DNA of 64,000 nucleotides from Solirubrobacteraceae bacterium (GTDB lineage Bacteria > Actinomycetota > Thermoleophilia > Solirubrobacterales > Solirubrobacteraceae). The position numbers and the translations under genes were made by a program. The notes under the pieces were generated by a model. It saw only the letters and a list, made by a program, of their open reading frames with translations, was not told the DNA's origin and ran no database searches. Below, piece by piece: positions 9,798 to 55,652 of this stretch (the stretch's first letter is position 1; the number at the start of each line of letters is the position of its first letter). The DNA is taken from the NCBI GenBank assembly GCA_039583645.1, contig JAVKSP010000001.1, forward strand, positions 12,360-76,359, read 5' to 3'.

Positions 9798-9848
9798 CCG
9801 CGTCCTTTCAAGGGACCCGCGACGCTATGCAATCGCACGCGTCGGGAC
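9798..9848 (-). repeat. Bipartite A-spacer-B element, weak copy
   Basis: A=GTCCCGACGCGTGCG (12/15 to consensus), 25-bp spacer, B=AAAGGACGCGG. Confidence 0.5.
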
Positions 9849-9887
9849 GTGTCCTTGCGAGACTGGGGCTGTCAACGTGAGCTGACG

Positions 9888-10559
9888 ATGCCGCATCCTC
9901 CGAACCGCGATCCCCGCCCGCCGCAGCTATCACGCGACCTCGAGCGGCCGGAGGCGCCAAGCAAAGTGTTCATCGACGAGGCTCTCCATGAGAGCCTGCG
10001 CCTAGAGGGCATCCGGTTCGCTGACCTCGAGGCCGATAACGTCATGCTCAAGCGGTTCGTCCTGACCGACCTCGATCTGAGTGCAGCGAAGCTTGATCGT
10101 CTCGGCCTTGAAGATGGATCGGTCAAAGCCTGCGACCTGGCCAACATGCGGGGCACGGGGTGCAGCTTTGAGCGTGTGGTGATCGAGGCATCCCGGCTTA
10201 CCGGTGTGGTGCTCGTCGAGCCACGGCTGATGGACGTTGTGATCCGCGATGCCCCGATCGGCTCCTCTTGCTTTCGGTTCGGACGGTTGCACCGCGTTCG
10301 CTTCGAGCGCTGCCGGCTCGTCGAGGCGGACTTCCAAGGCGTGACGGCCAAAGCATGCACATTTATCGACTGCGACCTGACCGGCGCCCAGCTCTCGCAG
10401 GCGAACTTTGCCGGATCTGGGTTTCGCGGGTGTCGGCTTGCTGGCGTGAGCGGTCTCGAAGCGCTCAAAGGCGCACAGCTGGCATGGCAAGACGTAATGG
10501 AGCTCGCGACAGCGTTGGCAGCGGCGCTCGGGATCGAAGTCCGCGACGACATCACATGA
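9888..10559 (+). CDS. Pentapeptide repeat protein
   Basis: Recurrent 5-residue units such as CDLAN, ADFQG, CDLTG, AQLSQ, ANFAG, CRLAG. Confidence 0.88.
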   Translation: MPHPPNRDPRPPQLSRDLERPEAPSKVFIDEALHESLRLEGIRFADLEADNVMLKRFVLTDLDLSAAKLDRLGLEDGSVKACDLANMRGTGCSFERVVIEASRLTGVVLVEPRLMDVVIRDAPIGSSCFRFGRLHRVRFERCRLVEADFQGVTAKACTFIDCDLTGAQLSQANFAGSGFRGCRLAGVSGLEALKGAQLAWQDVMELATALAAALGIEVRDDIT

Positions 10560-10638
10560 GCTCCTCGACGGCCGTGCGAGCCTCGCCGTTTTCTCCCCGC
10601 TCCCACGGAGCCACATGCAGCGGGCATAAGCTTGAGCG

Positions 10639-11282
10639 GTGCCGAGTGAAGCGACGTCAGTACTCCGTGTCGCGGTGCTCGCTTCTGGACAAGGCACCAC
10701 TTTCGAGGTGCTCGTTTGTGCCGGCCGCCGCGGCGAGATGGTGGCCGATGTAGTTCTGCTGATCGCCAGCAGGCAGGACGCGCCGGTGGTGGAGCTGGCT
10801 CGGCGACTGGGAGTGGAGTGCGTCGTGCTCGACGAGAAGCTGTACGGATCTTCCGACGGTGACGCTGCGATGGAGGGGTTGCTCACCAGGCGTCAGGTGG
10901 ACCTGGTGGTCTTGGCTGGCTTTCTCCGGAAGGTTGGTCCCGGAACGCTGATTACGTTCGCCGGTCGCGTCATCAACACGCATCCGGCGCCGTTGCCCCG
11001 GTTGGGGGCAAGGGAATGTTTGGGGAGCATGTGTACAAGGCGGTGCTCGAAGCTGGAGTCACGAGCTCTGCTGCCACGGTGCACCTGGTCGACGAGGAGT
11101 ACGACCACGGGCCGGTTATTGCTCAGCGAGAAGTCCCTGTACTGCCCGATGACGACGTCGTCACCCTCCGCGAACGTGTCAAAGGAGTCGAGAGGCGACT
11201 GCTCATCTCGGTGATCGACAGCCTTGCTCAGGACCAGCATGCTCACGACGCAGCCGGAGACGACTGGACTGCCCAGTCTTAG
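10639..11282 (+). pseudogene. purN: Phosphoribosylglycinamide formyltransferase (PurN-like), apparent 1-nt deletion near 11004
   Basis: VAVLASGQGT, LVVLAGFLRKV and INTHPA lie in one frame; GGKGMFGEHVYKAVL...ATVHLVDEEYDHGPVIAQ lies in another. One base is missing at CGG TT- GGG GGC. Confidence 0.8.
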
Positions 11283-11294
11283 CTGTCGAAGGTC

Positions 11295-11996
11295 GTGACA
11301 GCGTTGGTAGCTCCTCGCGCGCAGGTGTTGCAGCGGCTGGCTGACCTGGTGGCCGGCCTTCGCGCCGACCGGCCCGCGCTGGTCGCGGTCGATGGCCCCG
11401 ACGCTTCGGGGAAGACGAGCTTTGCCGAGGAGCTGGCGGTGCTAGTGCGGGTGAGGCGGCCGGTGGTTCGCATCCAGGCGGATCGGTTTCTCAATCCCCG
11501 CGCTGTGCGCTACCGCCGCGGCGCATGCTCGGTCGAGGGCTTTCTGGACGATTCCTATGACCTGCCTGCTCTTATCGCGAAGGTGCTCGCGCCGTTGAGT
11601 GGTGGAGACCGGTGGATCGTGCCTGCTGTTTTCGATCGCGCGACCGATTCAGTCATCGAAGAGCAGCGAGAACGAGTCCCCGATGATGCGGTTGTGATCG
11701 TCGACGGCGGCTTTCTGCTCCGCCGCCAACTTCGTGACTACTGGCAGTTCAGCGTGCTGCTCGAGGTCGCTGAGCAAGAACTTCTCTCAAGAGCACTTAT
11801 CCGCGATGCGGACCGGCTCGGCGGCCTGGGGGGCGTGCGAGAGCGCTACCAGCGGCGCTACCTGCCCGGCTTTCGGCTCTACCTCGCGCGCGAGCGCCCC
11901 GATAAGCATGCGAGCGTCGTGATCGATAACACCACGTTCGAAACGCTCACAGTGCGCCAATGCACGCGTCCCAGACCCTGCGCCCCAGGTCGGTAA
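11295..11996 (+). CDS. Uridine-kinase-like P-loop kinase
   Basis: Walker A DGPDASGKTS; VIVDGGFLLR; RYQRRYLPG..LY. Confidence 0.82.
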   Translation: MTALVAPRAQVLQRLADLVAGLRADRPALVAVDGPDASGKTSFAEELAVLVRVRRPVVRIQADRFLNPRAVRYRRGACSVEGFLDDSYDLPALIAKVLAPLSGGDRWIVPAVFDRATDSVIEEQRERVPDDAVVIVDGGFLLRRQLRDYWQFSVLLEVAEQELLSRALIRDADRLGGLGGVRERYQRRYLPGFRLYLARERPDKHASVVIDNTTFETLTVRQCTRPRPCAPGR

Positions 11997-12134
11997 AGCC
12001 AGGTTGTGGCAGCCATGGGCTCACCGCTCGGGGTTGCGGGGCGACGGCCATGAGATGGCTTGTTGCCCCGAGCATCTGCGGATCGTGCTCGATGAGCCGG
12101 GCGGCGGCGAGCATCGCTTCCGCCGGGCCGGCCT

Positions 12135-14615: not shown

Positions 14616-14973
14616 AGGGCTGCACAATCGGCGAGGACACGGCTCGGACAGGACGCACCTATGACGGCTGTGACCACCTGACCGGCGACGAGAGGAACTT
14701 GTCGTTTCGGGGGGTGTGCGTGCATGCGACCGGACATCGCCGAAGGAGTCGTGATATCGGCGGGCTGCGGACGCTCGCTTTCCGTTGTTAACGCTCGTCC
14801 GCGGATCAGGACAGAGCAGACGTCTGAGCGGTCAAAGCACGCGTCAGCCCCAGGATGTCGGGGGTGCGGCCCACACGCATGCGCGCCGGTCTGCCCGAGG
14901 CCCTGCGGTTTGGAGGACTCGAGAGGCATGCCAGGAGCGCATCCGCCGCGCGCGAAGGGCGTCCACCTCGGGT

Positions 14974-16482
14974 CTAGCCTTCTGGATAGCCGGTGCCGAT
15001 AAAGACGCCGTATGGGGGCCGGATTGTGCGCCAGTGGTGCGGGCCGCTGAGAATTTTGGTTGTCGGTCGGGATTTCGGGACGACGATGTAGTAGATGCCG
15101 GTCGTGGGGGTTTGGCCGGCGGACTCTCCGGCGCCGCCTTGCTCGGCCTGCCTGAGGCTTGGCGCACAACCTCCGCTTGCTCCGCCCCCGCCCAGTGCGC
15201 CCGCGGGTCCGCGCGGGGGTTGACTTGCGAAGAGGCACAGCCCGTTTCGACCGGGCACGATCCAGGCGCTGAGGCCGGTCGGGGAGGTGATTTGGCGGAT
15301 CTGGCTGAGGTCGGGCTCGACGGGCTGCCGGTTGAGTTTCGATAGCAGCGGGGTCCGGGTGTACTGGCGTTCGATGAGGTCAAGGACTGCGGCGGGTAGT
15401 GAGCTGACCCGCGGCCGCGAGACGGTGAGTCCCGAGGAGATCCTGACGCCGGAGCGGCTCGTGATCGCGAACACGGCAAAATCTGCCAGTAGGGCACGTG
15501 GCGCGTGGTAGGCGGGATAGCGGGAGAGGGTGCGGAGGGCTTGCTCTTTTTGCTCGTTCTGCCGTGCCTGGATGGCTTGCCGCAGCGCACGGTCAGAGGT
15601 CGGGATCACCGCGTGGTTGGCTCCATACCACGTGGCGTGCGTTAGCAAAGCAGGCAGCGCGTGCGGCACCAAATGTGCGTAGGCGATGTTGTGACTGACC
15701 GCCGGCGTGAGCGTCATAACGGGCTTGCGCTGGCGGGGGCCCGGCGTGCCGAATGTCCAGTGCACGTGCGCCACGCCGTCGGGCACGATCCCGACGACGT
15801 ATTCGTCTTTGAGCGCGACGCTTCGCTTGGCGTGGTGAGCTCCTATGAGACGGGCTATCGGAACGCCGACAACGCCGATCTGCTGAGCGTTGGTGAGATC
15901 GGCGGCTGGGACCGGCATGGTCTGGGTCGTCCCGTAGGGGCTGAGCGCGACGATCGAGACTTGATCGCCGAGCGTCGGGCTCCACAGAGCGTTAGGACCG
16001 CTGTGGGGTTCGCTGACCACGAGGAAAAGCCTGACCCCGCCCTGGGTGACAACCAGCCGGGTGAGGCCCGGGACGACCTTGCCGCTGCCAGGAAAAGGAA
16101 GTCTCACGTTCGCTGGCAGGCGGTCTGATGGCGTCTGCGGACGTCGCAGGACAGCCAATCGCGCGGTCAAGCCGCTCGCACCAGCGCCTGTCTGCTGGAC
16201 GGCCCCGCGGGGACGTAGCGCGAACAACACGATCGCCACGGCAGCCACCACCACCACCGCCAAGCCAACAGTGACAATCCCGGAGGCGGCGCTGAAAATC
16301 CGCTTGCTAGGTCGGTGTCGACCCCACAGCACCCCGGACAGACGTCCGCCCCTGCGCTCCCGCTCGATCTCTCGCTCAACGGCTGCCTGCGTTTTTGCGC
16401 TCAGGGCCGCCGTGTCGAGCTCGGGGAGCTCTCGATCCCGAATCGCGTACAGGGCTTCGAGGACCGCGTCTCGCTCAAACAT
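14974..16482 (-). CDS. Putative anti-sigma membrane protein with extracytoplasmic domain
   Basis: ATG at 16482 overlaps the end of the ECF sigma gene; single TM GIVTVGLAVVVVAAVAIVLFAL. Confidence 0.7.
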   Translation of the reverse strand: MFERDAVLEALYAIRDRELPELDTAALSAKTQAAVEREIERERRGGRLSGVLWGRHRPSKRIFSAASGIVTVGLAVVVVAAVAIVLFALRPRGAVQQTGAGASGLTARLAVLRRPQTPSDRLPANVRLPFPGSGKVVPGLTRLVVTQGGVRLFLVVSEPHSGPNALWSPTLGDQVSIVALSPYGTTQTMPVPAADLTNAQQIGVVGVPIARLIGAHHAKRSVALKDEYVVGIVPDGVAHVHWTFGTPGPRQRKPVMTLTPAVSHNIAYAHLVPHALPALLTHATWYGANHAVIPTSDRALRQAIQARQNEQKEQALRTLSRYPAYHAPRALLADFAVFAITSRSGVRISSGLTVSRPRVSSLPAAVLDLIERQYTRTPLLSKLNRQPVEPDLSQIRQITSPTGLSAWIVPGRNGLCLFASQPPRGPAGALGGGGASGGCAPSLRQAEQGGAGESAGQTPTTGIYYIVVPKSRPTTKILSGPHHWRTIRPPYGVFIGTGYPEG

Positions 16483-17062
16483 TCCTATCTCCCTCAGGCA
16501 TAGCTTCTGGACGGCCGCTTTTTCCAAACTGTGGGGGTGGCTCGGCGAGGTCTCGTGCCAGCCGCTCGCGCGCCCGGGCGATCCGCGAGCGGATCGTCCC
16601 CACAGGAATCCCGAGCGCCGAGGCTGCTTCTTGGTAGGACAGCTCCCCCCACACCACCAACAGCAGCGCGTCACGATCGCCCGCCGGCAATTCGCGAAGA
16701 CGCTCGACGACTGTCGAGGCCAGCAGCGCAACCTCGTCCTCCGTGGCTGGCGGCGTCGCAGCCATCACCTGCTGCACAGCTGTCAAACGCTGCCGCTCGG
16801 CTCGCCGGTGATCCGCGACAAGATGAGAAGCAATCCCCAAAAGCCACGGCAGAGCGGACTCATGATCCGCTCGAAACCTCGCTCGAGCACGGAAAGCCCT
16901 GACGAACACCTCTGCCGCCAGATCCTCCGCGCACTCGTGACCCACCCGGCGAGACAGATACTGCGCCACCCGGCGCAAATGCCGTTCATACAAAACGCCG
17001 AACCGCGCCGGAACCGCCACCGATTCCGCGATCACCTCAGCGTCAGAGCCAGTAGGCCCCAT
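16475..17062 (-). CDS. ECF RNA polymerase sigma factor
   Basis: FGVLYERH, AEDLAAEVF, ALPWLLGIA, LSYQEAASALGIPVGTIRSRIARAR. Confidence 0.93.
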   Translation of the reverse strand: MGPTGSDAEVIAESVAVPARFGVLYERHLRRVAQYLSRRVGHECAEDLAAEVFVRAFRARARFRADHESALPWLLGIASHLVADHRRAERQRLTAVQQVMAATPPATEDEVALLASTVVERLRELPAGDRDALLLVVWGELSYQEAASALGIPVGTIRSRIARARERLARDLAEPPPQFGKSGRPEAMPEGDRNV

Positions 17063-17114
17063 ACCCCTACATCGTCACCGAGCCCGAAAAAGTTCGCACC
17101 GGCAAGACACCCCA

Positions 17115-17774
17115 CTAATGGAGTTGCTCAGGGGCGGGACGATCTGAGCGCTGCGATTTCACGGCGAGCACCCAGAGGAAGCTGGCAACGCCCTCCGGCT
17201 CCTTCATCGGGACCACCTCGTCGAGCACGAGCGTAAGCCCTGCCGCTTGGAGCAGACGTAGGTTGGTGTTGGCGTCGTGGCTGCTGAAGAACATCGGCAC
17301 GCCGAGCCACTGGCCTGTCCAATCGGCGCCGCCGCGGGCCCCAAGGGCAGCGAGAAACAACCCGTTCGGCTTGAGCCAGCGGGCGATCTTCTCGAACAAC
17401 GCAGCGTGCTCCTGACGGGGCACGTGAGAGATCGAGTAGAAGGCTGTGACGCCATCAAACGTGTCTTCTTCGAACCTCAGCTCCGACAGGTCGCTGCGAA
17501 CGAAGGTTGCAGTCGGGACATTGGCCCGGGCGAGATGGATCTGCTCGTCCGAAATATCGACACCCACAACCTCAAAGCGCTCCGCCAGCTGCTTCGTCGA
17601 CGGCACGCCCGCGCCGCAACCAAGATCGAGTACCCGCCCTCCCCCGTGCAGGCGCCCCATCAACTCGCGCAGGAAACGATCGCGCGGATCGCCCTGGACA
17701 GCTTCACTCCAAGCCAGATGGCGCTCCCCCAAGGCATCGTAGCCAGCCTGCACAATCCTCTTCCGGACGTCCAT
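17115..17774 (-). CDS. Class I SAM-dependent methyltransferase
   Basis: VLDLGCGAG, VVGVDIS, FDGVTAFYSISHV, LKPNG. Confidence 0.92.
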   Translation of the reverse strand: MDVRKRIVQAGYDALGERHLAWSEAVQGDPRDRFLRELMGRLHGGGRVLDLGCGAGVPSTKQLAERFEVVGVDISDEQIHLARANVPTATFVRSDLSELRFEEDTFDGVTAFYSISHVPRQEHAALFEKIARWLKPNGLFLAALGARGGADWTGQWLGVPMFFSSHDANTNLRLLQAAGLTLVLDEVVPMKEPEGVASFLWVLAVKSQRSDRPAPEQLH

Positions 17775-17828
17775 CGGCTCCCGCTTTTATCAACTCAACG
17801 GCCGGTATCCGCACGCTCGCTTAGCGAC
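17775..17828 (-). repeat. Bipartite A-26-B element; B supplies the SD of the methyltransferase
   Basis: A=GTCGCTAAGCGAGCG, 26-bp spacer, B=AAAGCGGGAGCCG immediately followed by ATG 17774. Confidence 0.8.
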
Positions 17829-17829
17829 G

Positions 17830-17975
17830 GCGGCAGACGCCACCAGCGGAGCGAGACCCCGCGTCGGGCGACCGGTGGCATGAGCGCCCACCCGGGCGGG
17901 CCAAGGCTGTCGAGATCGCTCCAGACCCGCAGTCTCGCGTTGGCCGGATCGAGGCGAGGACGCCGCTGCAAGTAG
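17830..17975 (-). repeat. Long conserved leader block (L) preceding Box A, copy 1 of 3
   Basis: GCAGCGGCGTCCTCGCCTCGATCCGGCCAACGCGAGACTGC...CATGCCAC, shared with 40255-40399 and 48262-48421. Confidence 0.85.
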
Positions 17976-17996
17976 CCCGAAGCGGGAGGCTGGTCG

Positions 17997-18599
17997 TCAG
18001 CCTGCTTCGGCCCAGGCGTGGTGCGCTTCATGTAACCCGTAGAAGACGAGCACGAGGGCTGAGAGAGGGTCCGCCCACCACCACCCGGCGGCGGCGTTGA
18101 GGACGACGCCGGCGAGCACGGCTGCGGCGAGGGCGCCGTCGATGACGGTCACGCGAGACTCGGTCTGCAGCACGGGATTGCCGAGCCGCTTACCAGTCTC
18201 GCGTTTGCCTGCTGCGAGGGCGAACATGGCGAGAACGGTCGCGGCGAGCCAAACGATGCCGAGCGTCGAGTGTCCAGGATGCGATCGTGAGGCCAGCGTT
18301 ATTGCGCTTTGCGCCGCTATGTAGATGGCGAGCAGCACGAACGCGACCGCGATGACGCGCAGAGCCCGCCGCTCGCGCCCCGAGCCCATCTCGCCTTTGA
18401 GCTGCCAAACAACGACGGCGGAAGCGACGATTTCGATAAGCGAGTCCGCGCCGAACCCGGCAAGCGCCACGGAGCCAGCAGCAATCGCGGCGATGACAAG
18501 CACGGGCGTCCCGACGACGTTCCAGGACAGCGTTGCGTACTCGAGCATCAGTCCGCGCTGCACGAGCTTCTGATCGGACGCGATGCGGGCGGGGCTCAT
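17997..18599 (-). CDS. Cation-efflux (CDF-like) TM-only transporter
   Basis: SVALAGFGADSLIE and WWWADP motifs; six TM segments; no cytosolic C-terminal domain. Confidence 0.8.
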   Translation of the reverse strand: MSPARIASDQKLVQRGLMLEYATLSWNVVGTPVLVIAAIAAGSVALAGFGADSLIEIVASAVVVWQLKGEMGSGRERRALRVIAVAFVLLAIYIAAQSAITLASRSHPGHSTLGIVWLAATVLAMFALAAGKRETGKRLGNPVLQTESRVTVIDGALAAAVLAGVVLNAAAGWWWADPLSALVLVFYGLHEAHHAWAEAG

Positions 18600-18659
18600 C
18601 GGCGCTCGGGTGTCCGAGATGCCGCTGGGAGCGGTCGAGACTGCGCCTCGGGGTCTGCT

Positions 18660-19343
18660 TTAGGGATCGACAACGGGCGGGACAGGGCAAGACACGCATT
18701 CGCAGCTTTCGCCCTGCCATGACCGGCGCCCCTCCCAGAGGGCGAGCGCAGCGATACCGAGCGCGACCACGGGATCGAGCCACCAAAGCCCAAACAGATT
18801 GTTGGCAAGCAGGCCAGCTAGGACCGCGGCCGCGAGGTACGCGCAGATCAGGTTTTGACGTCCTTCTCCGGCCGTCGCCGACGATCCGAGTTGCGCGCCT
18901 AGCCGGAGCTTTGCGCGACCGAGCCAGGGGCAGATCGAAAGCGTCGCGACACACAGACCCACGCCCAGCCAGGTCGTATCGGCGTGGTGCTCGATCGCTA
19001 GCGCCCGCGTTGCCTCGTAGGCGATGTAGGGGGCCAGCAGGAAAAAGCTCACGGCGACCAGCCGCTGCGCCGTCCGCTCAGATGTGGCCGAGAGTGTGCG
19101 CGCACCCGAGAAGCGCCAGACGATGATGACGCTCGCCAATCCCTCGATCGCTCCATCCAGCCCGTTCCCGATCAGCGCAATCGACCCGGCGAGCAATCCG
19201 GCCGTCGTCGTTGCCGCCCCTTCGATGCAAAGCCACGCCAGAGAGACACTCGCTAGGCGACGAGCACGCCGCGCTGCGTCAAGCCACTCCTGACTCTTAC
19301 CGGAATCGACTTGCGGGGCGATTGTCCCCACATCGACGCTCAT
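18660..19343 (-). CDS. Cation-efflux (CDF-like) TM-only transporter, paralog with Cys-rich tail
   Basis: SIALIGNGLDGAIE, WWLDPVVAL, C-terminal CECVSC. Confidence 0.8.
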   Translation of the reverse strand: MSVDVGTIAPQVDSGKSQEWLDAARRARRLASVSLAWLCIEGAATTTAGLLAGSIALIGNGLDGAIEGLASVIIVWRFSGARTLSATSERTAQRLVAVSFFLLAPYIAYEATRALAIEHHADTTWLGVGLCVATLSICPWLGRAKLRLGAQLGSSATAGEGRQNLICAYLAAAVLAGLLANNLFGLWWLDPVVALGIAALALWEGRRSWQGESCECVSCPVPPVVDP

Positions 19344-45745: not shown

Positions 45746-45774
45746 GAGTTCGTTACGGGCGCCACACTCAGCTT

Positions 45775-46425: not shown

Positions 46426-47070
46426 ATGGGCGCTTGGCTGTTTGACTTGGATGGGGTGTTGGTCAATTCAGTCGCTGCCTATAGCTCGGCGTGGAGGCGT
46501 TGGGCAAAGGAGCGCGGGATCTCTGAGTCGGCGATCTGGGTGGACGCGCACGGCAAGCGTCCGGAGGACATCATCGGTCGTGTAACGTCGGGATCTGATC
46601 TCGAGTCTGGGCTGCGGGCGTTTGATGAGGCCCTCGCGGCTGCAGCCGCCGCCTGCAAGCCGATGCCGGACGCCGTTGAATGCCTCGCCACGCTCGACCC
46701 GGGCAGCTGGGCGATCGTCACATCGGGCAGACGAGGCCATGTTCGCGCCTGCCTTCAGCACTGCGGGCTGCCGGTGCCGCGGGTGCTGGTCTGCGGCGAT
46801 GAGGTATCGCGTGGCAAGCCCGATCCAGAGTGCTATTTGGCTGCAGCAGCCGGGTTGGCTGTCGAGCCCGCTGCATGCGCGGTGGTTGAGGACGCGCCGG
46901 TGGGGATCGATGCGGCGCACGCAGCTGGCATGCGCGCGATCGCGATCACGAATACGCACAGCGCAAGCGAGCTCCTTGCCGCGGACGAGATCTACAGCTC
47001 CCTTCGCGACCTCACGGCGAGTCTTCACGGAGACCGTGCTTACTCCCATCGATCGCATCGATCGGCGTGA
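46426..47070 (+). CDS. HAD-superfamily phosphatase (likely leaderless)
   Basis: FDLDGVLVNS, VTSG, KPDPECY, VEDAPVG; TAGGAT lies 6 nt before the ATG. Confidence 0.93.
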   Translation: MGAWLFDLDGVLVNSVAAYSSAWRRWAKERGISESAIWVDAHGKRPEDIIGRVTSGSDLESGLRAFDEALAAAAAACKPMPDAVECLATLDPGSWAIVTSGRRGHVRACLQHCGLPVPRVLVCGDEVSRGKPDPECYLAAAAGLAVEPAACAVVEDAPVGIDAAHAAGMRAIAITNTHSASELLAADEIYSSLRDLTASLHGDRAYSHRSHRSA

Positions 47071-47152
47071 GGCGCGCGACCCAGCGCAGGGCCTGCCGTC
47101 GCATCGTGGATGATCCATCCCGCTCGAGCCGAAGCTCTGGCCACGCGCTCGC

Positions 47153-47203
47153 GTCGCAAAGGAGTCGTCCGCTCGGCCGCCAGGGAACCAGATCGAGCGT
47201 CCG
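47153..47203 (+). repeat. Bipartite element, 22-bp spacer
   Basis: A=GTCGCAAAGGAGTCG plus TCCGCTC (22-nt near identity with the 24362 copy), B=AGATCGAGCGTCCG. Confidence 0.7.
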
Positions 47204-47257
47204 GAATGGGGGAATCAGGCTAGATGCTGGAGGGCTCGGCGAGGAGCAGCGGTCCGT

Positions 47258-47989
47258 TCAGTGATGCTCGAAGATCGTCTTGAACGACTCGTCAGCTGCC
47301 GCCAATTTGGTCGTCTTGATCAGCAGCGTGGAGTTGCGGTAGCGGTCATAGCGGGTACTACTGGCGGCTAGGGGTTGGCCGTTTACCGTCGACGCGGAGA
47401 ACTTGATCGTGCCGAAGTCCGGCACCGACGTCGTGCCGACCAGGCCGATGAAGTAGGGACCTCCTTTGAAGGATCCGGCTTGGGTGTATGTCGACTTCAC
47501 GCTCTTATGGGTCATGTCTTGGACGGAGGCGGTGTGTTTGTGCGCTGTGATGTCCTCGGTGATGACGACCTTGTCACCTGGGTGCGCCTGAAGTGAGGAT
47601 CGTCCTGTGGTGGTCCACGGGTAGTAGCGGGCCTTGCCCCTGACGCATTCGATTAACAGTCCCGCTTGGTCAAAGTCCGAGTTGCCCTGATCGGTGAACC
47701 AAAGCTGGACCTCGGCGGAGACCGCTTGCTTCTTGGTGGCGCAGTTTTTGATCTTCGGCACGACGATCGTCGTGGTTTCCGATACGCGCGCGACCCAATG
47801 CGAGGACTCCGGGCTGTAGCCCGCCAGCGAGGAGCTCGTCTGGGGCGTTGAGCCGAAACGGGCCGCCGGTATAGCGCCGCCGCCTTTCGCATTAGCGGGG
47901 CTGACAGAGGACCCTAACGCGGGCACCGCCAGTGCAAGCAACGCTGTGAGCACGAGCACCGCGCACGAACTGCCCCGACGAATGGACAT
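47258..47989 (-). CDS. Secreted peptidase G1-like protein, possibly inactive
   Basis: GGAGGA SD; IVVPKIKNC, DQAG, HPGDKV, VPDFGTIKF; lacks the EWIxE segment. Confidence 0.68.
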   Translation of the reverse strand: MSIRRGSSCAVLVLTALLALAVPALGSSVSPANAKGGGAIPAARFGSTPQTSSSLAGYSPESSHWVARVSETTTIVVPKIKNCATKKQAVSAEVQLWFTDQGNSDFDQAGLLIECVRGKARYYPWTTTGRSSLQAHPGDKVVITEDITAHKHTASVQDMTHKSVKSTYTQAGSFKGGPYFIGLVGTTSVPDFGTIKFSASTVNGQPLAASSTRYDRYRNSTLLIKTTKLAAADESFKTIFEHH

Positions 47990-48261
47990 CTGCGTCCTCC
48001 TTATCACCGCTGCACCCCCAAAGTTAGCCCGATCGGGAAGCTAACGATACCCGCGTCCCGCGGCTCGCCGCGGCGGGCACCGCAAACATAGTAAGGGCCG
48101 CTCGCGATGATTCCGAATGGCGACTAATCACCGCCACCCACAACCTCACCAAACTCCACAAACACCAGCTCGCCGCAGCCGCCTAACCCGAAACGGCCGG
48201 CCCGTGGTGCTTCAACCGACAAACCATCGGTATTGACCGCCCGCCCGCGAGTTACGCGACA

Positions 48262-48421
48262 GCCTCCGACGACGGCAGGCGTCACCGGCCGAGCGAGAAG
48301 CTGCGCCCGTCGTGAGAGCGTGGCATGAGGCGCCCACTCGGGTGAGCCAAGGCTGTCGAGATCGTTCCAGACCAGCAGTCTCGCGTTGGCCGGATCGAGG
48401 CGAGGACGCCGCTGAAAGTAG
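48262..48421 (-). repeat. Long leader block (L), copy 3 of 3, followed by an A-like box at 48246-48260
   Basis: TCAGCGGCGTCCTCGCCTCGATCCGGCCAACGCGAGACTGC...CATGCCAC; no clear B at the expected distance. Confidence 0.82.
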
Positions 48422-48674
48422 CCCAAACGAGAAGCGTAAACCGGCAATGACGGGCGCTGGCGCGACGCGAGCGCGGCGAGCCCGCGAAGCTGATCGTCGG
48501 GCGGTTCAAACGGTGTAATGATTTCGCTGCGGCCCGCAATCATGCCCACTCGCTCGCGACCGGCGAAACGTGCGGGCATATGCGCGGGAGCACGGGGACG
48601 CACCCCTGCGCTCCTACGCGCCCGTCGAGGTTCTTAAGCGCTGCCCGGGAGACCGGCCGGGCCCAAGCGTGCCG

Positions 48675-48881
48675 CTAGCCGCTCCCACCTAGTTCTTCTT
48701 CCGGTGGCGGCGTAGGATCGTCAACCGTCCACGTGTTGTCCTCTAGGTCGGGATGGCGGACGAGTTCAGCGTGGCACTGCGGGCAGGTTGAGCGTTGGTT
48801 CCGCGCATGATGCTGGCCGATTGTGTAGGTCCCCGTATCGAGAACCCGCTCCCCGCACTGAGGACACCAGAGGCCTGCCAT
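48675..48881 (-). CDS. Small zinc-ribbon protein
   Basis: WCPQCG and TCPQCH (two CxxC) in 68 aa. Confidence 0.65.
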   Translation of the reverse strand: MAGLWCPQCGERVLDTGTYTIGQHHARNQRSTCPQCHAELVRHPDLEDNTWTVDDPTPPPEEELGGSG

Positions 48882-49230
48882 GCGTCGGAATGTACTACCG
48901 GGACCTACTCACGACCCAAGCGTCCGGGCGAGTTGCCACGGGTCTAGCTCGACCGTCCAGCGCGGTGCGGGCCACTGTTCGTGGGCTCACTCGAGGAAGT
49001 TCAGGCCAGCGTCCAGCGTGACCGTGCGGTGTCCCTGGCGGATCACGGGGCAAGCGCGGTGTCTCTCGCTCTCAGGTGGGTCGACGCCGGACAAGCGACC
49101 TCACGATTGCTGCTTTGATCGACCACCACCAGTCTTAGGGAGGCCCCTGCATTTGGGGAATAGGGACAGTCAGCAACCCAGACTGAGAAAGGCATGCCGT
49201 GGTCGGCCAGCGTGACCTCGGACGCTTGCT

Positions 49231-49440
49231 GATAGGGCAAGCTTGGTATTGCCTCGACCGCCGCCGGGGGAGGGCCTCGCTTGCTTGCCCTTGTTCGAGG
49301 GCCATGGAAAGACCGGCCCCTCCCGGCGGTGGTGAGGTGCCGCGAGCGGCGACAGGACGTAGCCCCACTTGAGGGCCTTGTCTATCAGCACCCGCAACGG
49401 TACCTCCGGGTCGGGGCGCTGTCGAATGGTCCGATTGTGG
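49231..49440 (+). ncRNA. Predicted IS110 bridge RNA with target-binding and donor-binding loops
   Basis: Target loop: CGCTTGCT (49278-49285) and GGAAAG (49306-49311) between GGGAGGGCC/GGCCCCTCCC and CCCT/AGGG stems. Donor loop: ACAGGACGT (49352-49360) and CTATCAG (49382-49388). RNA ends are approximate. Confidence 0.8.
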
Positions 49441-49451
49441 GGAGGTAAGTG

Positions 49452-50765
49452 ATGGGCAATTGCGCGGGGATCGACTGGGCCTCGGAGAAGCACGAGGTAC
49501 TGATCGAGGACCCGGCCGGCGAGGAGCTGCTGGCAGGGACGTTCGCGCACGATGAGGATGGCGTGAGCGCGTTGTGCGGGGCGTTGGCGTGCTTTGACGT
49601 TGAGCTGGTGGCGATCGAGCGGCCGGATGGCCTGTTGGTCGACCGGCTGTTGGAAGCGGGGGTGCGGGTGCTGGCGCTGCATCCCAACCAGGTCAAGGCG
49701 GCGCGCGATCGCTTCCGCGCCTCGGGCGGGAAGTCCGATCAGTTCGACCGGTTCGTGCTGTGCGAGCTGGCGCGCACCGACAACCACCGCTTCCGGGTAC
49801 TGGAGCCCGACTCCGATCAGACCAAGGCGCTGCGAGCGCTGGTCAGAGCCCGGGAGGATCTGGTCGGCGCGCGGGTGGCGCTGGCCAACCAGCTACGCGC
49901 CGAGCTTGGCCGGTTCTGGCCGGGCCCGGTCGGCCTGTTCTCGGCGATCGATAGCCCGGTCTCGCTCGCGTTCCTGGCCCGCTATCCCAGCCCGGCCGAC
50001 GCGCGGGGACTAGGTCACAAGCGCATGGCCGCGTTCTTGAAGGCCCAGCACTACTGCAGCCACAAGACTGCCGGGCAGCTGCTTGAGCGACTGCGCTCGG
50101 CTCCGACCGGGCGCGCCGGCGAAGTGGAGACTCGCGCCCGACGCTCGGTCGTGGTGCGCCTGGTCGCCACGCTGCAGATCATGGTCACGCAGATCGCAGA
50201 GCTCGAGTCAGAGATCTCCCAAGCGCTCGACGCCCATCCCGACGGGGAGATCTTCCGCAGCTTCTTCCGCAGCCGCGACTCGGTGATCTGCGCCGCCACG
50301 CTGCTGGCAGAGATCGGCGACTGCCGCGCCCGGTATCCACACCGCGACGCGATCGCCGCCGACGGCGGCCAGGCCCCCGTCGCCAAGGAGTCCGGCAAAC
50401 GCAAGCACGCGCAGTTCCGCTGGGCGTGCAACAAGCGCCTGCGCAACGCGCTCTCGACCCTCGCCCAAAGCACCCGCATGTGGAACCCATGGGCCGCTGC
50501 CCGCTATGCCGCGGCCAGAGCCCGGGGGCACAACCACCGCCGCGCATTACGCACCCTAGGCCGTGCCTGGAGCCGCATCATCTGGCGCTGCTGGCACAAC
50601 CGCACCCCGTATGACCCGCAGCGCCACACCGGGCTGCAACAACACATCACCGTCACCATCCCCACCCCGTCGGGCCCCCGGCCCGACCTCACCGCCACCC
50701 AGCGAATGGCAGGCGCGGACGTCACCTCAACGGTGGCCCGGAGGGCCGAGCGCGCCAGCGCTTGA
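49452..50765 (+). CDS. IS110 family DEDD recombinase/transposase
   Basis: GIDWAS, VAIER, KSDQFD (RuvC-like DEDD), ATLLAEIG, APVAKESGK; GGGAGGT SD. Confidence 0.95.
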   Translation: MGNCAGIDWASEKHEVLIEDPAGEELLAGTFAHDEDGVSALCGALACFDVELVAIERPDGLLVDRLLEAGVRVLALHPNQVKAARDRFRASGGKSDQFDRFVLCELARTDNHRFRVLEPDSDQTKALRALVRAREDLVGARVALANQLRAELGRFWPGPVGLFSAIDSPVSLAFLARYPSPADARGLGHKRMAAFLKAQHYCSHKTAGQLLERLRSAPTGRAGEVETRARRSVVVRLVATLQIMVTQIAELESEISQALDAHPDGEIFRSFFRSRDSVICAATLLAEIGDCRARYPHRDAIAADGGQAPVAKESGKRKHAQFRWACNKRLRNALSTLAQSTRMWNPWAAARYAAARARGHNHRRALRTLGRAWSRIIWRCWHNRTPYDPQRHTGLQQHITVTIPTPSGPRPDLTATQRMAGADVTSTVARRAERASA

Positions 50766-50910
50766 CGGCAAGCCGCCAGTCGCTAAACACCCCCGACCTT
50801 GACACAGGACGTCTTTCCGCGCACGCGCGAGCGATGCGGTCCTGCCGACAATCGGCGCAGCTCTTGCCATGGTCGCGGCGGGCACGCCCGCAAGGTGGAC
50901 GACCGCGACC

Positions 50911-51201
50911 TCAGGCAACCCCCTCGACGGCAACCATGTTGAGACGCGCGGCGCCCTCACGGAGGCGCTTGGCCTCCTCGTAATCCGGTGAGGCGTAGAA
51001 CCGCTTGGCGGCGTCGAGGTTCTTGAACTCAAGCACCACAAGCCGACGAGGGTTCCAATCGCCCTCGAGTACGGCAATCTCGCCGCCCCGGACTACGAAC
51101 CTGCCTCCCCCGGCCGCGACGGCGCCCGGAGAAGCCGCCTTGTAGTGCTCGTACTGGTCGGGGTCGTGGATGTCGGTCTCGACGATGATAAATGCGGACA
51201 T
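50911..51201 (-). CDS. DUF1330 domain protein
   Basis: AYIIV-type start, GGRFVVRGG..LEG.W.P.RLVVLEF.....FYASPDY. Confidence 0.9.
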   Translation of the reverse strand: MSAFIIVETDIHDPDQYEHYKAASPGAVAAGGGRFVVRGGEIAVLEGDWNPRRLVVLEFKNLDAAKRFYASPDYEEAKRLREGAARLNMVAVEGVA

Positions 51202-51241
51202 ATGCGCTCCTATGGGCGGGGTCGAGAGATCTTCTGATCAT

Positions 51242-51294
51242 GCCGCCTGCTTTCACAAAGAGCGCCCGCCTGGAGGTCGCTTTCGCAATGCGAC
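51242..51294 (-). repeat. Bipartite A-26-B element
   Basis: A=GTCGCATTGCGAAAG, 26-bp spacer, B=AAAGCAGGCGGC. Confidence 0.7.
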
Positions 51295-51406
51295 GTATCC
51301 GCCTTGACGGGCATGGCGCCTTCTCGTTTCGCCCGATGGAGCTCGGCGGTCTCTCGTTCTTGGACGAACTCGACGGGGTCGTGGCCGCCGTCCGTGCTGG
51401 TCGCCG

Positions 51407-52341
51407 ATGAACCCTGAGGAGAGGATCTGGGTCGCGCTGCGGGGTGCGCTCGTGACGCGCGCGCTCGCCCTGGCCGCCGACCTGCGCGTTGCGCAGGCGC
51501 TGGCGGCCGGCCCGCGGAGCATTCACGAGCTCGCGCGCCGGTGCGGCGCCGACAGCGACACGCTGTACCGGGTGCTGCGAGCGCTCGCGAGCGATGGCAT
51601 CTTCGAGGAGGCCGAGCCGGGCATTTTTGGCAACAGCGCCGCCTCGCAGGTGCTGGCGCGCGACGGCTGGGATGACTTCGCCCACCTTTTCGGCGGCGTC
51701 TGGCTGCGAGCGGTCGCGGCGCTAGACGCGAGCGGCGAGCCGTCGTTCCCGCGCATCCACGGCAGCGAGCTCTGGGCGTGGTTCGCGGCGCACCCGCACG
51801 AGCGCGCCGCCTTCGATCGTGCGATGGCGCAGGGCTGGCAGAACCGCCTCGAGCGGCTCGAGAGCGTCGAGTGGCGCGGCGATGAGCTGGTCGTCGACGT
51901 CGGCGGTGACAACGGCTCGCTGCTTCTCGCGCTGCTGCAGCGTCACCCGCGGATGCGCGGCGTCGTCTTCGACCTGCCCGAGACGGTGCGCGACGAGGAG
52001 GCGCTCGGCGACCGCTGTGAGTTCGCCGAGGGCAGCTTCTTCGAGTCGGTGCCGCAGGGCGACGCCCACCTGCTCTCGACGATCCTCCACGACTGGGACG
52101 ACCGCTCGGCACGGCGGATTCTGGAGACGGTCCGTGCGGCGGCGGGTGAGCGGCTGATCGTGCTGGAAACGTGATCGAGCCCGGCAACGCCCCCGACGAC
52201 GGGAAATGGCTGGACCTGCTGATGCTCGCGCTCGCCGGCGGACGCGAACGCACGGAGGAGCAGTGGCGGGCGCTGCTCGGCGACACGGGCTGGCAGCCGA
52301 CGCGCATCGGCCGAGGGGTGATCGAGGCTCAGCCGGCGTAG
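51407..52341 (+). pseudogene. O-methyltransferase (dimerisation plus SAM domain), apparent 1-nt deletion near 52170
   Basis: LYRVLRALAS.GIF, VVDVGG, VFDLP, GSFF, ILHDWDD; the C-terminus VIEPGN...KWLDLLML..GGRERT is in the adjacent frame. Confidence 0.82.
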
Positions 52342-52680
52342 CGCCAGTGCGCGGGAACCGCGACGCTCGCTTTTGCAGACCCAGCGACTACGAAGCGGAC
52401 ATTGAAATGACTCTTGTTTTGACCGTCCGGGTTTATCCGCCGGCGATAGGCGGTTGCAAATCAACTGCCAGGGTTCTGCGACGGTGTTCTCCGGGTAGCG
52501 GTATGGATGAGGACCCCCGGTACGCGGCCTTCCTGTGCCCCTTGGAGGGTCACGTAGACGGCAGCCCCAGGCACGAAGCCTGAGCCTCCCCGACACACCG
52601 GGGGTCCACTCGCCTCGTCGCCTGGACCGGCGCTCGCGCTCGTAGGCTGCGGCTTCCGCTCTCCGTACGCAGAAAGCACG

Positions 52681-52732
52681 ACGCCCGCTTTCGTCGGCCA
52701 CACACCCACCGAGCTGGCGCTCGCCTTGCGAC
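52681..52732 (-). repeat. Bipartite A-26-B element
   Basis: A=GTCGCAAGGCGAGCG begins 12 nt after the AlkZ-like stop; 26-bp spacer; B=AAAGCGGGCGT. Confidence 0.85.
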
Positions 52733-52744
52733 GAGGGAGGGCGT

Positions 52745-53812
52745 CTACACGCCCGTGACGTGGACCTTTCGTGCCTCCGGCACCAGCCACCGTCCCAGCC
52801 GTCGCGCCTCGGCCCCCATCCGGTCGCGCGCCTTGTGCGCCAGTTCAAGGTGTGCGGTGATCTCGATCTCGACCGGGTCGCCTGCGCGCCGCCAAAGCCA
52901 GCTGGCGACGATCCGGCCATCGACCGTGACCGTCTGGTCGCCGGCGAGCCCCAGCTTCAGCGCTTGGATCTCCGGGGCCATGATCCGGTCACGGTCGGCG
53001 TGGGCGAGCGTTGCCTGGTCCCAGCGCGAGAGAAACCGCACCGGCATCCGAGTCGACGCGGGCGGCAGCGGGAGGTTGGGCAGGTCGAGGAGCTCGACGC
53101 CCTTCTCGTCGCGGAAGCAGACAGTCGACACGCGCGCCAGCGCCTGAGCGAAGTCGGCTTGGGGTACGCCGGCCCACGCCGCGATGTCACGCCGGCTGGC
53201 GGGCCCGAAGGCCGCCAAGTAGCGCTTGAGCGCGATCGTTGCGGCGTCAGCGGGGCTCGGCAACGGCCGCGGATCGACGCCGAACCGCGGCCGGCGGCGA
53301 TCGTCCCACGCGCCGGCCGGCGGCAGCTGCACTAGCGGCAAGAGGGTGCGGGCGAACATGATCGGTCCATAGTCGGTGTCGGGGACGCCGTCGTAGCGCT
53401 GCACGCGCTCGCGAATCTCGTCATTGGCCCGCGCCTTGGCCTCGAACCATCCCTCCAGCTCGGCGGTGACCTGCGCGAGGTCAAGCTGCGCGTGGGCCTT
53501 GTGCAGCCGGCGGAGCCGCGGCTGCCTGGCGAGCTGGTGATACGCCGGGTACTCGTCCGCCGCCGTGATGTGCAGGGTCGTTCGCATCAGCGTCGACTTA
53601 ACTGCCTTACGTGCATGGAGCGCCACCTCGAGCTGATCACGGGTGAAGCCCGCGAGCCGTGCCGCGAGCGCGATGTATGGCGCCCGCGGCTCCTGGCCCT
53701 GCAGCGGAGTGAGCCGGCGGAGCGCCTCGACCGGATCGAGCCGCTGACGGTCGAGCAACATCTGCCTGGCCGCGAGCGCGGCCGTAAGTTCGCGCCGCGT
53801 GAGAGTACGCAT
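52745..53812 (-). CDS. AlkZ/YcaQ-family (HTH_42) DNA glycosylase-like protein
   Basis: RQMLL, PLQGQ (QxQ), LMRTTLH, RYLAAFGPASRRDIAAWAG, FLSRWD. Confidence 0.88.
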   Translation of the reverse strand: MRTLTRRELTAALAARQMLLDRQRLDPVEALRRLTPLQGQEPRAPYIALAARLAGFTRDQLEVALHARKAVKSTLMRTTLHITAADEYPAYHQLARQPRLRRLHKAHAQLDLAQVTAELEGWFEAKARANDEIRERVQRYDGVPDTDYGPIMFARTLLPLVQLPPAGAWDDRRRPRFGVDPRPLPSPADAATIALKRYLAAFGPASRRDIAAWAGVPQADFAQALARVSTVCFRDEKGVELLDLPNLPLPPASTRMPVRFLSRWDQATLAHADRDRIMAPEIQALKLGLAGDQTVTVDGRIVASWLWRRAGDPVEIEITAHLELAHKARDRMGAEARRLGRWLVPEARKVHVTGV

Positions 53813-53836
53813 GCCTGCAATTTGCCACCCCGCTCA

Positions 53837-53890
53837 GGACGCTCGCTTCCACGGCTCGCGACAGCCGTCGCCTTACGCCTGCTTCGCGAC
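53837..53890 (-). repeat. Bipartite A-26-B element
   Basis: A=GTCGCGAAGCAGGCG, 26-bp spacer, B=GAAGCGAGCGTCC. Confidence 0.85.
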
Positions 53891-54056
53891 GGACGCGATC
53901 GCCAGCCACAGCGCCGCACGGGTGAGCGCTTCGGCGACGAGGCGAGCGCCCGCGAGCTGAGGCTTATCCGGCCGCTTTCACTGCCAACGGCTTGGCTGAT
54001 GTCTACGTCGGTGGTAGGCACCTCGCGCTGCGCCGGAGCCCCACCGTTGAGTCGTC

Positions 54057-54460
54057 TCAGGCCCAGCCGAGCTGCTTCAGTGTGATGCCCGAGTTCCAAA
54101 TCTTGGTCATGTGGCGAATCCGGTCGCCCTCAAAGTCCATCACGTACACGTAGTCCGCCTGAGCGCTTTTGCCGGTCGGTGGGACCGGCCCGCCTTCGCC
54201 GGTGTGGGTGCTGGAGAACACGGCGTACGCCATTACGCTGTTCCGCTCCTCGTCGACCGCGAACGACTTCAGGTCGTAACGGCCGTCGGGGAGCAACGAC
54301 AGGAGGCGCTTTATCCAATTGGTGTACTGCTCCAAGGTGTGGACGTCCTCGAGGGGCTCGGCCTGCGCCGAAAAGGTGGCATCGGGAGCGCAGAACTGCT
54401 GGCACACCTCCCGGCCCTTGCCGTCTCGCATGCGTCGAAAAAGGCTCGCGCGATGGCCAG
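54057..54460 (-). pseudogene. SnoaL-like (ester cyclase) protein, frameshifted near 54422, no clear start
   Basis: AIARAFFDACET continues as GKGREVCQQFC in another frame; THTGEGGPVPPTGK, YVYVMDF, TKIWN. Confidence 0.72.
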
Positions 54461-54487
54461 TATGTGCTGGCGCCAGCTTCTACTCGA

Positions 54488-55264
54488 CTAGATCCCCGCC
54501 GTGACGTGGGCGTACGGGCCACTGCCGACGGCGATGGACCCCGAGAACGGGTATTGAAGAACCAAGGCGGTGAACAACCCGACACCTACGATCACCGCGA
54601 CACCCACCACAAGCGCTATGTCGACACCCGGGCGGTGAGCCTTGATCAGTAGCGAGGTGCCAAGCAGCACTGCGCCTGAAAGGACTATCAGCGCGAGTAG
54701 TGGTGCCGGGATAGATGTCTCTGCGGCCTCCACTCGTTTTTGCCGCGCGCCTGCGACGGCGTTCAGCTGGTCGGCGACCGAGCCGTAGAACGCGCGCTGT
54801 GCCTCGGTCACCGGCGAATAGCCCTGCACCGCGGAAAAAATGAGCGCCATACGACTTCGCGCTTCGGGATCCTCGCGCCCTTTCCTCAGCAGCGCGAACT
54901 CCCGGTTCCGGACTTCGTTCGCATAAGCCGCGACCGCACGGTCAATCCGCCCCCGCTCCGCTGACGGGAACACCTCCGCGTCCCGCACAAGCGTGCTGAG
55001 CGAGTTCGCCTCCGCGCTGACGCTCCCGACGGCGCTTTCAAACCCGCTGTACAGGTTGACGACTACGAACGCGAGAACGAGCGCGAACATCGTCATCGCC
55101 ATCTGGGCGACACCGACAACCTGCTCCGCCGAGTGGGCCGCTCGCCACCCCGGCAAAAACCGGCGCATCAACCACCATCCCAGCAACGCGATGGCGACCG
55201 ATACCACGATAAAGATCGGGCCGATCGCCCAGTCCGAGAGATGGTTCAAAAGGCTTCTCGCCAT
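54488..55264 (-). CDS. DUF4239-like (bestrophin-like) membrane protein
   Basis: FALVLAFVVVNLY, V..EANSL, YA..V...E, R..R, LQYPFSGSIAV. Confidence 0.78.
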   Translation of the reverse strand: MARSLLNHLSDWAIGPIFIVVSVAIALLGWWLMRRFLPGWRAAHSAEQVVGVAQMAMTMFALVLAFVVVNLYSGFESAVGSVSAEANSLSTLVRDAEVFPSAERGRIDRAVAAYANEVRNREFALLRKGREDPEARSRMALIFSAVQGYSPVTEAQRAFYGSVADQLNAVAGARQKRVEAAETSIPAPLLALIVLSGAVLLGTSLLIKAHRPGVDIALVVGVAVIVGVGLFTALVLQYPFSGSIAVGSGPYAHVTAGI

Positions 55265-55601
55265 ACGGCACGATTCTCCCCGACTGCATCGCACCATGCT
55301 CGAGAGGAATTCCCACCCGCCACTTTGCGGCCCTGCCAGCTCTTGCCTGAGGACCTTCGTACCTCAAGCTCGCCGAAGACCGCGGGCTTACTTGTCCCAG
55401 GCGGACCTTTCCCGGGACCCATTCACAATCGCGCACGCATCTCGAGGTCGCCGACACGCTCGGGCGACGAGGCGCGCACCGGGTCGCTGAGGCCCGGACG
55501 AGCGCTATCGCGAGAAACGAGTAGCCGGCCCCGCGGCAATCCGGCGGCTGCTTCGCGTCGAACGCGATCGCCAGCCGCAGCGCCGCTCGAGTGAGCGGAA
55601 G

Positions 55602-55652
55602 GTCGCCATTCGCCTGACGCGCCGCGACGGCATGGAACGCAAAGCGATCGCG
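55602..55652 (+). repeat. Bipartite element, GTCGCCATT subtype, 23-bp spacer
   Basis: A=GTCGCCATTCGCCTGA, B=AAAGCGATCGCG; last copy seen. Confidence 0.6.

Follow-up and report, generated by a model that had tools for sequence, protein, structure and literature searches.

To our knowledge, integrons are the only well-understood bacterial system by which single genes are stockpiled and shuffled as cassettes. Their attC sites are formed by imperfect inverted repeats in the order R''-L''...L'-R', with R' conforming to GTTRRRY, and the cassettes are mostly promoterless, co-oriented and read from the Pc promoter by attI. The attI1 site of class 1 integrons is a simple site supplemented with the accessory direct repeats DR1 and DR2, which are bound by IntI1. 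Short sites are also used in the R64 shufflon, where Rci, a full-size recombinase, shuffles the 3' ends of a single gene by means of asymmetric 19-31 bp sfx sites, which have one arm and the core conserved and recombine in inverted pairs only. In the pdif modules and integrative mobile elements exploiting Xer (IMEX), XerC/XerD act on dif-like 28-bp sites with inverted 11-bp arms and an AT-rich 6-bp centre. Here, a window of 64,000 nucleotides from the genome of a Solirubrobacteraceae bacterium (C1:12360-76359 of a 3.0-Mb assembly in 176 contigs) is described, in which ~40 kb of the chromosome is taken up by small, unrelated gene modules parted by a short bipartite element. These elements are probably cassette-type, site-specific recombination sites of a gene-capture platform other than the integron.

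The element is composed of CGTCGCnAAGCGAGCG, a spacer of ~26 bp and GAAAGCGAGCGTC, together making up a two-box motif of 55 bp, and its strong copies read ...C-GTCGCGAAGCGAGCG-N25/26-GAAAGCGAGCGTC. Box A comprises the hexamer CGTCGC and a right arm, nAAGCGAGCG, while Box B is a direct-orientation repeat of AAGCGAGCG, usually with TC next to it. Among 31 aligned copies CGTCG is invariant (31/31), and the C after it, the GC and CG of Box A and the AAAGC..G.G of Box B are conserved in at least 90%. Of the 109 distinct copies gathered from this genome and its relatives, 65 have CGTCGC and AAAGC 42 bp apart and 28 have them 41 bp apart (85% together). This spacing corresponds to the spacer of 25-26 bp, described as nearly fixed in length, in the initial annotation, a first reading of the window that preceded this analysis, and 42 bp corresponds to four helical turns from the hexamer to Box B. 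The same annotation held the spacers to be unrelated in sequence; this stands for the spacer columns, which carry almost no information, the length being fixed and the sequence free, but not for a number of sub-families in which the spacer and ~105 bp past Box B are held in common.

Box A alone is matched 32 times against 14.6 +/- 3.8 expected from dinucleotide shuffles, and Box B alone 37 times against 10.8 +/- 2.9, with none of 100 shuffles as high in either case. With a profile made from 14, later 31, copies and with search filters off, the window yields 27 copies at E < 1e-3, of which 20 score 31-56 bits (Table 1), matching the approximately 27 counted initially. All fall within 14,758-55,572. 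On either side, at 1-14.7 kb and at 55.7-64 kb, no profile match reaches 10 bits, in line with the initial claim of copy-free flanks at 1-9.6 kb and 56-64 kb. The copies are intergenic and lie between modules of one to three genes, at a median site-to-site distance of 1.18 kb. An array from 9.8 to 55.7 kb, with one copy in most gaps from 17.8 kb onwards, had been proposed; the copies do separate modules, but nothing credible occurs at 9.8-14.7 kb and the stretch at 31.4-36.6 kb is element-free. The gene map places no copy inside the coupled gene pairs which had been named as lacking them.

No conserved secondary structure is detected in the element. RNAalifold returns 0 consensus pairs on the 31 copies, and the folding energy shows no excess over shuffles (mean z = -0.08 for the core and -0.32 for 84 nt). 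An attC-type hairpin, a repetitive extragenic palindromic (REP) sequence and an intrinsic terminator are thereby excluded, and a duplex protein-binding site is indicated. This bears on the reading of the locus as the remnant of a classical integron, a cluster of attC sites lacking an integron-integrase (CALIN), with very divergent attC sites, as an array of small accessory cassettes might suggest, the window being without an integrase. The copies contain neither an R''/R' inverted repeat and hairpin nor RYYYAAC/GTTRRRY motifs, in keeping with the initial view that they are not classical attC sites. No IntI is encoded in the genome, where the best match to TIGR02249 reaches 77 bits against a cut-off of 265, and the recombinase embedded in the arrays of related genomes, described below, matches it in two pieces at 68 bits and is without the IntI insertion. 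Complete integrons have, moreover, been reported absent from Actinobacteria (PMC4889954). An integron remnant is hence hardly credible here.

Genome-wide, 42 copies are recovered by nhmmer at E < 1, distributed over contigs C1 (25), C46 (nine, all on one strand), C8 (four), C116 (three) and C22 (one), with none on the other 171 contigs. The five element-bearing contigs constitute 6.3% of the genome. The element is real, occurs far beyond chance and is clustered rather than dispersed. Profile matches are present in 26 of the 36 genomes of the same genus and essentially lacking in the order's other families. When 185,579 species genomes were scanned with a degenerate pattern, many metagenome-assembled genomes of Solirubrobacterales and Solirubrobacteraceae were returned; given this degeneracy, scattered single matches in unrelated phyla are taken as chance, and the element is restricted to Solirubrobacterales genomes. 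In other members of this order it forms close-packed, mostly one-directional arrays at few loci, with nine sites in 5 kb at L026, five sites at L072 and 13 sites in 13 kb at L153. The flanks of the window are conserved in the genus, placing the array at a conserved chromosomal position with species-specific content. A TetR-tRNA-Asp pair likewise precedes a (-) array in G011, orthologues of YbjQ have sites just upstream in G011, G021 and G072, and the locus is without an array in G065, the right flank of which is the closest to that of the window (91% identity).

A pairwise comparison of all element contexts (+/-300 bp) locates a junction at CGTCGC. Seven of the 11 right-hand homologies begin exactly at the C of this hexamer, while left-hand homologies stop within Box A or at most 6 bp past it. 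The element at 19913-19988 is 100% identical over 77 bp to C116:5800-5876, beginning exactly at CGTCGC, with unrelated left flanks, and the spacer and right flank of the element at 47143-47211 are 85% identical to C22:32247-32332. Conversely, the 219 bp upstream of another element (53887-54105) are 98% identical to C22:30339-30557, and this homology stops inside CGTCGC. A non-coding module of ~150 bp, termed U, lies directly upstream of CGTCGC at four places with different spacers after it, namely 40251-40400 (+), 17829-17976 (-) and 48267-48427 (-) in the window, which are 80-85% identical to one another, and C116:5168-5291, which is 78-81% identical to these. The first two are 85% identical and are joined to unrelated spacers, which requires a junction inside the element. 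In matrix correlations, the variable positions of Box A are linked to the spacer (r = 0.19, p = 0.01) and not to the left flank (r = 0.03, p = 0.29), while Box B is linked to the right flank (p = 0.009) and unlinked to the left. In an independent genome, G014, three copies are alike from CGTCGC through the element and ~105 bp beyond, with both outer flanks unrelated. The homology edges and the linkage together indicate that the hexamer and the DNA to its right are inherited together and that the DNA to its left is exchangeable. CGTCGC thus combines the generic properties of a tyrosine recombinase site, an invariant putative overlap and a flank-homology junction located there. The pattern resembles that of conserved attC sites of the Vibrio cholerae repeat (VCR) type beside unrelated cargo, although the analogy is no proof of cassette transfer.

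Modules of ~105-110 bp, termed D, occur immediately past Box B, ahead of unrelated genes; they belong to several sub-families, some of which extend across species, and include 39259-39349 (+), 19820-19912 (-) and 49117-49230 (-) in the window as well as L045:858-960 and L075:2958-3060. They may represent variants with a longer site, promoters or small RNAs. In the C22 segment (30339-32315), the homology to the end of the SnoaL module is followed by an open reading frame for a transposase-like protein of 513 amino acids (30609-32150; assigned by sequence, without a domain search) and then by an element whose spacer matches that at 47143-47211.

The sub-families, in which the element and ~105 bp are shared while the cargo beyond is unrelated, would also be expected of a selfish short repeat, comparable to miniature inverted-repeat transposable elements (MITEs), REPs or bacterial interspersed mosaic elements (BIMEs), which multiplies itself in genomic islands, has CGTCGC as a constant 5' terminus and takes no part in module exchange. 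IS110-family elements often target REPs, and one copy does hold an IS110 insertion, the split noted initially, located within Box B. The element, however, differs from MITEs and from the REP/BIME sequences associated with RAYT transposases in having no palindrome, hairpin or excess folding energy, no terminal inverted repeats and no conserved interior, its length being fixed while its sequence is free. Furthermore, no Y1/RAYT transposase is encoded in the genome (PF01797 is absent), and the even spread through core DNA that had been considered as a REP- or MITE-like possibility is not seen, copies being confined to a few arrays on five of the 176 contigs. The 85% identical U left flanks on unrelated spacers, with the in-element junction they require, are likewise not accounted for by a self-multiplying repeat, which is considered unlikely, although it is the alternative to be taken most seriously.

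Thirteen tyrosine recombinase genes or gene fragments in the genome exceed the Pfam cut-off. A recombinase gene near the arrays of relatives was first found at G085:C3:1610051-1610725 and, together with orthologues in G065, G072, G087, G088 and G089 (two copies), forms a group with 76-80% amino acid identity. When 20 kb around each was scanned for sites, all seven close orthologues proved to have a site scoring 26 bits or more no further than 3.2 kb away. Five of the seven are located inside arrays, co-oriented with the sites (L150-L154), and for three of these a site begins 64-122 bp past the end of the protein match. Additional adjacencies of recombinase and element are found in G015:C8, G018:C1, G033:C16, G023:C1 and G021:C1, and across 36 genomes the two co-occur (21/5/3/7, odds ratio 9.8, p = 0.007). 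Between genomes, only the recombinase gene and its ribosome-binding site are conserved. The gene codes for ~235 amino acids, in which the catalytic residues R, K, HxxRH, GH and Y are present. The best family matches are Xer catalytic domains (XerC with 97-109 bits, archaeal XerA, and PDB entries 4a8e and 5hxy), with scores far under every family cut-off. Only ~40 residues precede the catalytic domain, which indicates that the enzyme is without the core-binding domain normally present in tyrosine recombinases (PMC8138268). At L152:9009-9485 (G089:C3), a gene with a PIN_10 domain is situated directly upstream of the array-embedded recombinase gene. Intact recombinase genes include G088:C7:7771-8478 and that of G089:C3 (L152:9611-10321).

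Both close orthologues in the genome under study are pseudogenes. The one at C8:30839-31404 is disrupted by a frameshift and a TGA codon, and two sites are located 2.7 kb away, while that at C129:4284-4850 continues at 142-258, the two parts being separated by an insert of ~4 kb with further tyrosine recombinase genes. An intact paralogue, 45% identical, is encoded on contig C22, 1.4 kb from a cassette-end segment. With both close orthologues degraded, the array in the window is probably either frozen, in the manner of a CALIN, or served in trans by the C22 paralogue. The genes in the C129 insert (C129:142-4850), at 995-1480 and 2561-3058, give it the appearance of a recombinase-in-trio element.

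Arrays often begin next to tRNA genes (Asp, Thr, His, Lys, Ala and Glu), and phage-type integrases or their fragments occur near some of them (L091, L082 and the fragment in the window at 43283-43579), as would be expected if the repeats were att scars of small tRNA-targeting islands, integrated serially by integrases of the type of phages or integrative and conjugative elements and accreted in tandem. The repeat, however, does not derive from a tRNA 3' end, sharing only the hexamer with tRNA-Asp. At L049, where tRNA-Thr lies 127 bp ahead of the first site, the site has no similarity to the tRNA, and the same element is found at six different tRNAs as well as at loci without one. The modules, of 0.3-3 kb, have no integrase of their own, and the array-adjacent phage-type integrases belong to unrelated families. 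Serial island accretion is therefore quite improbable. The integrases near L091 and L082 were set aside on this ground, and the fragment in the window is not of the array-embedded family. The CGTCGC in the 3' half of tRNA-Asp (9643-9648) is probably a chance occurrence, as the tRNA resembles the element in nothing else and the adjacent block of sites points the other way.

Modules co-oriented and anti-oriented with respect to the site direction are about equally frequent, and genes point either way within a block of sites. This, and the location of sites between convergent genes (40386, 44240 and 47143), makes roles as promoter, leader, operator or terminator unlikely; the element works at the DNA level, independently of transcription. 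A pair of direct repeats kept 42 bp apart, in helical phase, with a single site per intergenic gap, could also mark the binding sites of a protein, such as an operator-binding, nucleoid or partition-like protein, which organises, silences or regulates accessory DNA and has no part in recombination. Such a role fits poorly with sites that face either way with respect to the genes and also lie where convergent genes end, with a linkage break at a fixed hexamer, with an association with a recombinase and no regulator, and with a chromosome which is otherwise free of sites, and it is quite unlikely.

From the observed motif, its fixed geometry and clustering, its independence of transcription, the break in linkage at CGTCGC and the tie to a recombinase, we infer the following for catalysis, crossover position, excision and integration. 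The sites of what would be a cassette-type gene-capture array, and not an integron, are predicted to be double-stranded and non-palindromic, with CGTCGC as the probable region of strand exchange. In this model nAAGCGAGCG is the conserved right arm, and its direct second copy (GAAAGCGAGCGTC), 36 bp on, places Box B 42 bp from the hexamer. The likely enzyme is the small, Xer-like tyrosine recombinase of ~235 amino acids, comprising the catalytic domain only, the gene of which sits inside the arrays of relatives like a cassette. Recombination of two directly repeated sites would release a circle with one hybrid site, and the reverse reaction would insert the circle at a site already in place. If inverted sites recombined, segments would be flipped, which would explain the orientation blocks of the window; these blocks and the A-to-A inverted pairs (31283/31324 and 38391/38439) could represent past inversions.

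The initial proposal that these are recombination sites of a gene-capture system gains from the CGTCGC junction and the tie to a recombinase in relatives, while a number of observations weigh against it. No excision or integration event is observed: among the element contexts compared there is no excision product, no empty site and no whole cassette bounded on both sides in two contexts. The shared segments are short, spanning the element and ~105 bp downstream or ~150-220 bp upstream, their far ends do not coincide with the next CGTCGC, and a repeat with a sharp left edge would likewise yield alignments starting at CGTCGC. Within the site, the right arm GCGAGCG is conserved, whereas only 12 of 32 copies carry a matching inverted left arm, CGCTCG(C), and a left flank pairs with the right arm of its own Box A no better than with that of another copy (p = 0.13). 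The lack of a core-binding domain in the recombinase also counts against the proposal, and the present genome has no intact close orthologue. The recombinase could be just one more gene accumulating in hypervariable regions; many of its copies in the genus are truncated, and near the diverged ones of G007, G004 and G090 no sites are detectable. Lastly, the search model derives from the present genome, which biases detection in relatives.

Cassette-type gene capture remains the favoured reading, and the arrays resemble chromosomal integrons and CALINs in several respects. Both are long arrays of small, unrelated accessory and defence modules with one copy of the site each, both show site sub-families conserved beside unrelated cargo and a crossover, putative in the present arrays, near one end of the site, and both may lack a working integrase, the candidate enzyme here being an Xer-related tyrosine recombinase. 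In contrast to integrons, the element has no folded hairpin and no R''/L''/L'/R' symmetry, and instead comprises two direct repeats in a fixed phase of 42 bp. Roughly half the modules run antisense to the site, and the block-wise site orientation (-, +, -) is not integron-like. The recombinase, of ~235 amino acids, is encoded within the array, co-oriented with the sites, and not divergently at its edge. The attI1 site offers a parallel as a duplex site with a simple core crossover and extra direct repeats tens of bp to one side; here, however, each module has a putative site, and there is no sequence similarity. The R64 shufflon sites are similar in the conservation of only one arm and the core, and their multi-site segment inversions are comparable to the orientation blocks of the window, but the shufflon holds no arrays of unrelated genes. 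The minimal invertases FimB and FimE, of ~200-235 amino acids, also consist essentially of the catalytic domain, and NCBIfam invertase models align with residues 41-204 of the recombinase, although with 60 bits against a cut-off of 222, and the Fim enzymes flip a single promoter segment. As in the pdif/IMEX systems, gene modules are bounded by short sites and a recombinase of Xer type is encoded elsewhere, but the element consensus has no dyad symmetry, and no dif-like sequence is present in the genome at up to four mismatches.

More tentatively, the arrays could represent a second, independently evolved integron-like platform of the Solirubrobacterales, which banks accessory and defence genes by means of duplex bipartite sites, exchange at CGTCGC and a catalytic-domain-only, Xer-like enzyme whose gene sits in the array like a cassette, a proposal that we regard as possible if somewhat doubtful. 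If it is correct, the capture of genes as cassettes has arisen on two or more occasions with distinct kinds of DNA site, in integrons with a folded single-strand hairpin and here with a fixed-spacer, two-box duplex and a much smaller recombinase. A second case for the study of cassette origin would then be available, the accessory and defence genes of soil actinobacteria would be open to cassette-targeted recovery, and a new compact tool for site-specific recombination may be obtained. No description of such arrays or of the motif was found in the literature, which is not proof of novelty.

The cargo is of accessory and defence type, and its initial description agrees with the Pfam annotation. 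Methyltransferases, a CDF pair, DUF1918, DUF6463 and cupin proteins, an NHL/GntR pair, a peptidase A4, VOC and nitroreductase proteins, an ECF sigma/anti-sigma pair, GNAT, HAD and DUF1330 proteins, an O-methyltransferase, an AlkZ-like glycosylase, SnoaL and a bestrophin are encoded in the modules, while a DUF4041-T5orf172 nuclease and other defence-like genes are present at 31-38 kb. Homologues of each of five modules compared at the DNA level across species occur elsewhere, on different contigs; as the homology is limited to the genes and the species are ~75-85% identical, breakpoints are not mappable in this comparison. An exact-protein look-up for strain variants of two cassette proteins returned nothing on record. 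The coordinates of the array and of its copies are given in Table 1.

Table 1. Copies of the bipartite element and associated features in the window
Feature	Position	Strand	Score or remark
Whole array, 27 copies	14758..55572	.	Blocks: (-) 14.7-31.3, mixed/empty 31.3-38.4, (+) 38.4-47.2, (-) 48.2-55.6 kb
tRNA-Asp (anticodon GTC) adjoining TetR gene	9581..9654	+	
Partial element, Box B half, first copy	14758..14797	-	16 bits
Element after ~150-bp U module (17829-17976)	17763..17841	-	39.8 bits
Element; ~110-bp D module next at 19820-19912	19913..19988	-	42.8 bits
Element	20772..20848	-	40.9 bits
Element	21490..21565	-	41.1 bits
Element, neighbouring genes on + strand	24350..24429	-	49.3 bits
Element	24928..25001	-	40 bits
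Element	26051..26127	-	31.6 bits
Element	27971..28048	-	52.5 bits
Element	29324..29400	-	44.2 bits
Element, A-to-A inverted pair with 31324-31383 (+)	31211..31283	-	41.1 bits
Weak element	31324..31383	+	17.2 bits
Weak element	36643..36702	-	17 bits
Weak element, A-to-A inverted pair with 38439-38516 (+)	38333..38391	-	17 bits
Element	38439..38516	+	43.3 bits
Element, then ~110-bp D module to 39349	39183..39259	+	47.7 bits
Element between convergent genes, after U module 40251-40400	40386..40464	+	51.3 bits
Element	41215..41289	+	44.5 bits
Element	43087..43161	+	48.2 bits
Tyrosine recombinase C-terminal fragment (HDLRH...LGH...Y)	43283..43579	+	Outside array-embedded family
Element between convergent genes	44240..44316	+	50.9 bits
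Element	45689..45746	+	32.4 bits
Element between convergent genes	47143..47211	+	42.1 bits
U module and degenerate Box A, without recognisable spacer or Box B	48257..48427	-	
Element of the 39.2-kb sub-family, IS110-split within Box B (GAA/AGC)	49117..50900	-	
IS110-family element	~49231-50814		DEDD transposase 49449-50765 (+)
Weak element	51244..51301	-	18.2 bits
Partial element, Box B half	52349..52400	-	21.3 bits
Element, starts right after AlkZ-like gene stop	52667..52745	-	56.3 bits
Element	53827..53903	-	37.4 bits
Partial element, Box A half, rightmost copy	55525..55572	-	16.6 bits

At the gathering threshold, Rfam identifies only tRNA in the window. The almost site-free region at 31361-38095 encodes, besides the DUF4041-T5orf172 protein, a DUF4145 frame, a protein of 301 amino acids with an N.DKHR motif and two large proteins without a family match. 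Proteins encoded at the edges and in the centre of the array (12526-16731, 35678-38095, 55915-56559 and others) have no match in Pfam or NCBIfam, and none is recombinase-like. Two cargo genes contain internal tandem repeats at the DNA level, namely those for a protein of 447 amino acids with DUF6087/DUF2510-like pieces (21854-22744) and for a beta-propeller protein of the LDL-receptor class B/DUF5050 type (30356-31073). A second copy of the IS110-family element, 80% identical over 1.4 kb, is located at C34:22013-23425, where it adjoins a tyrosine recombinase gene.

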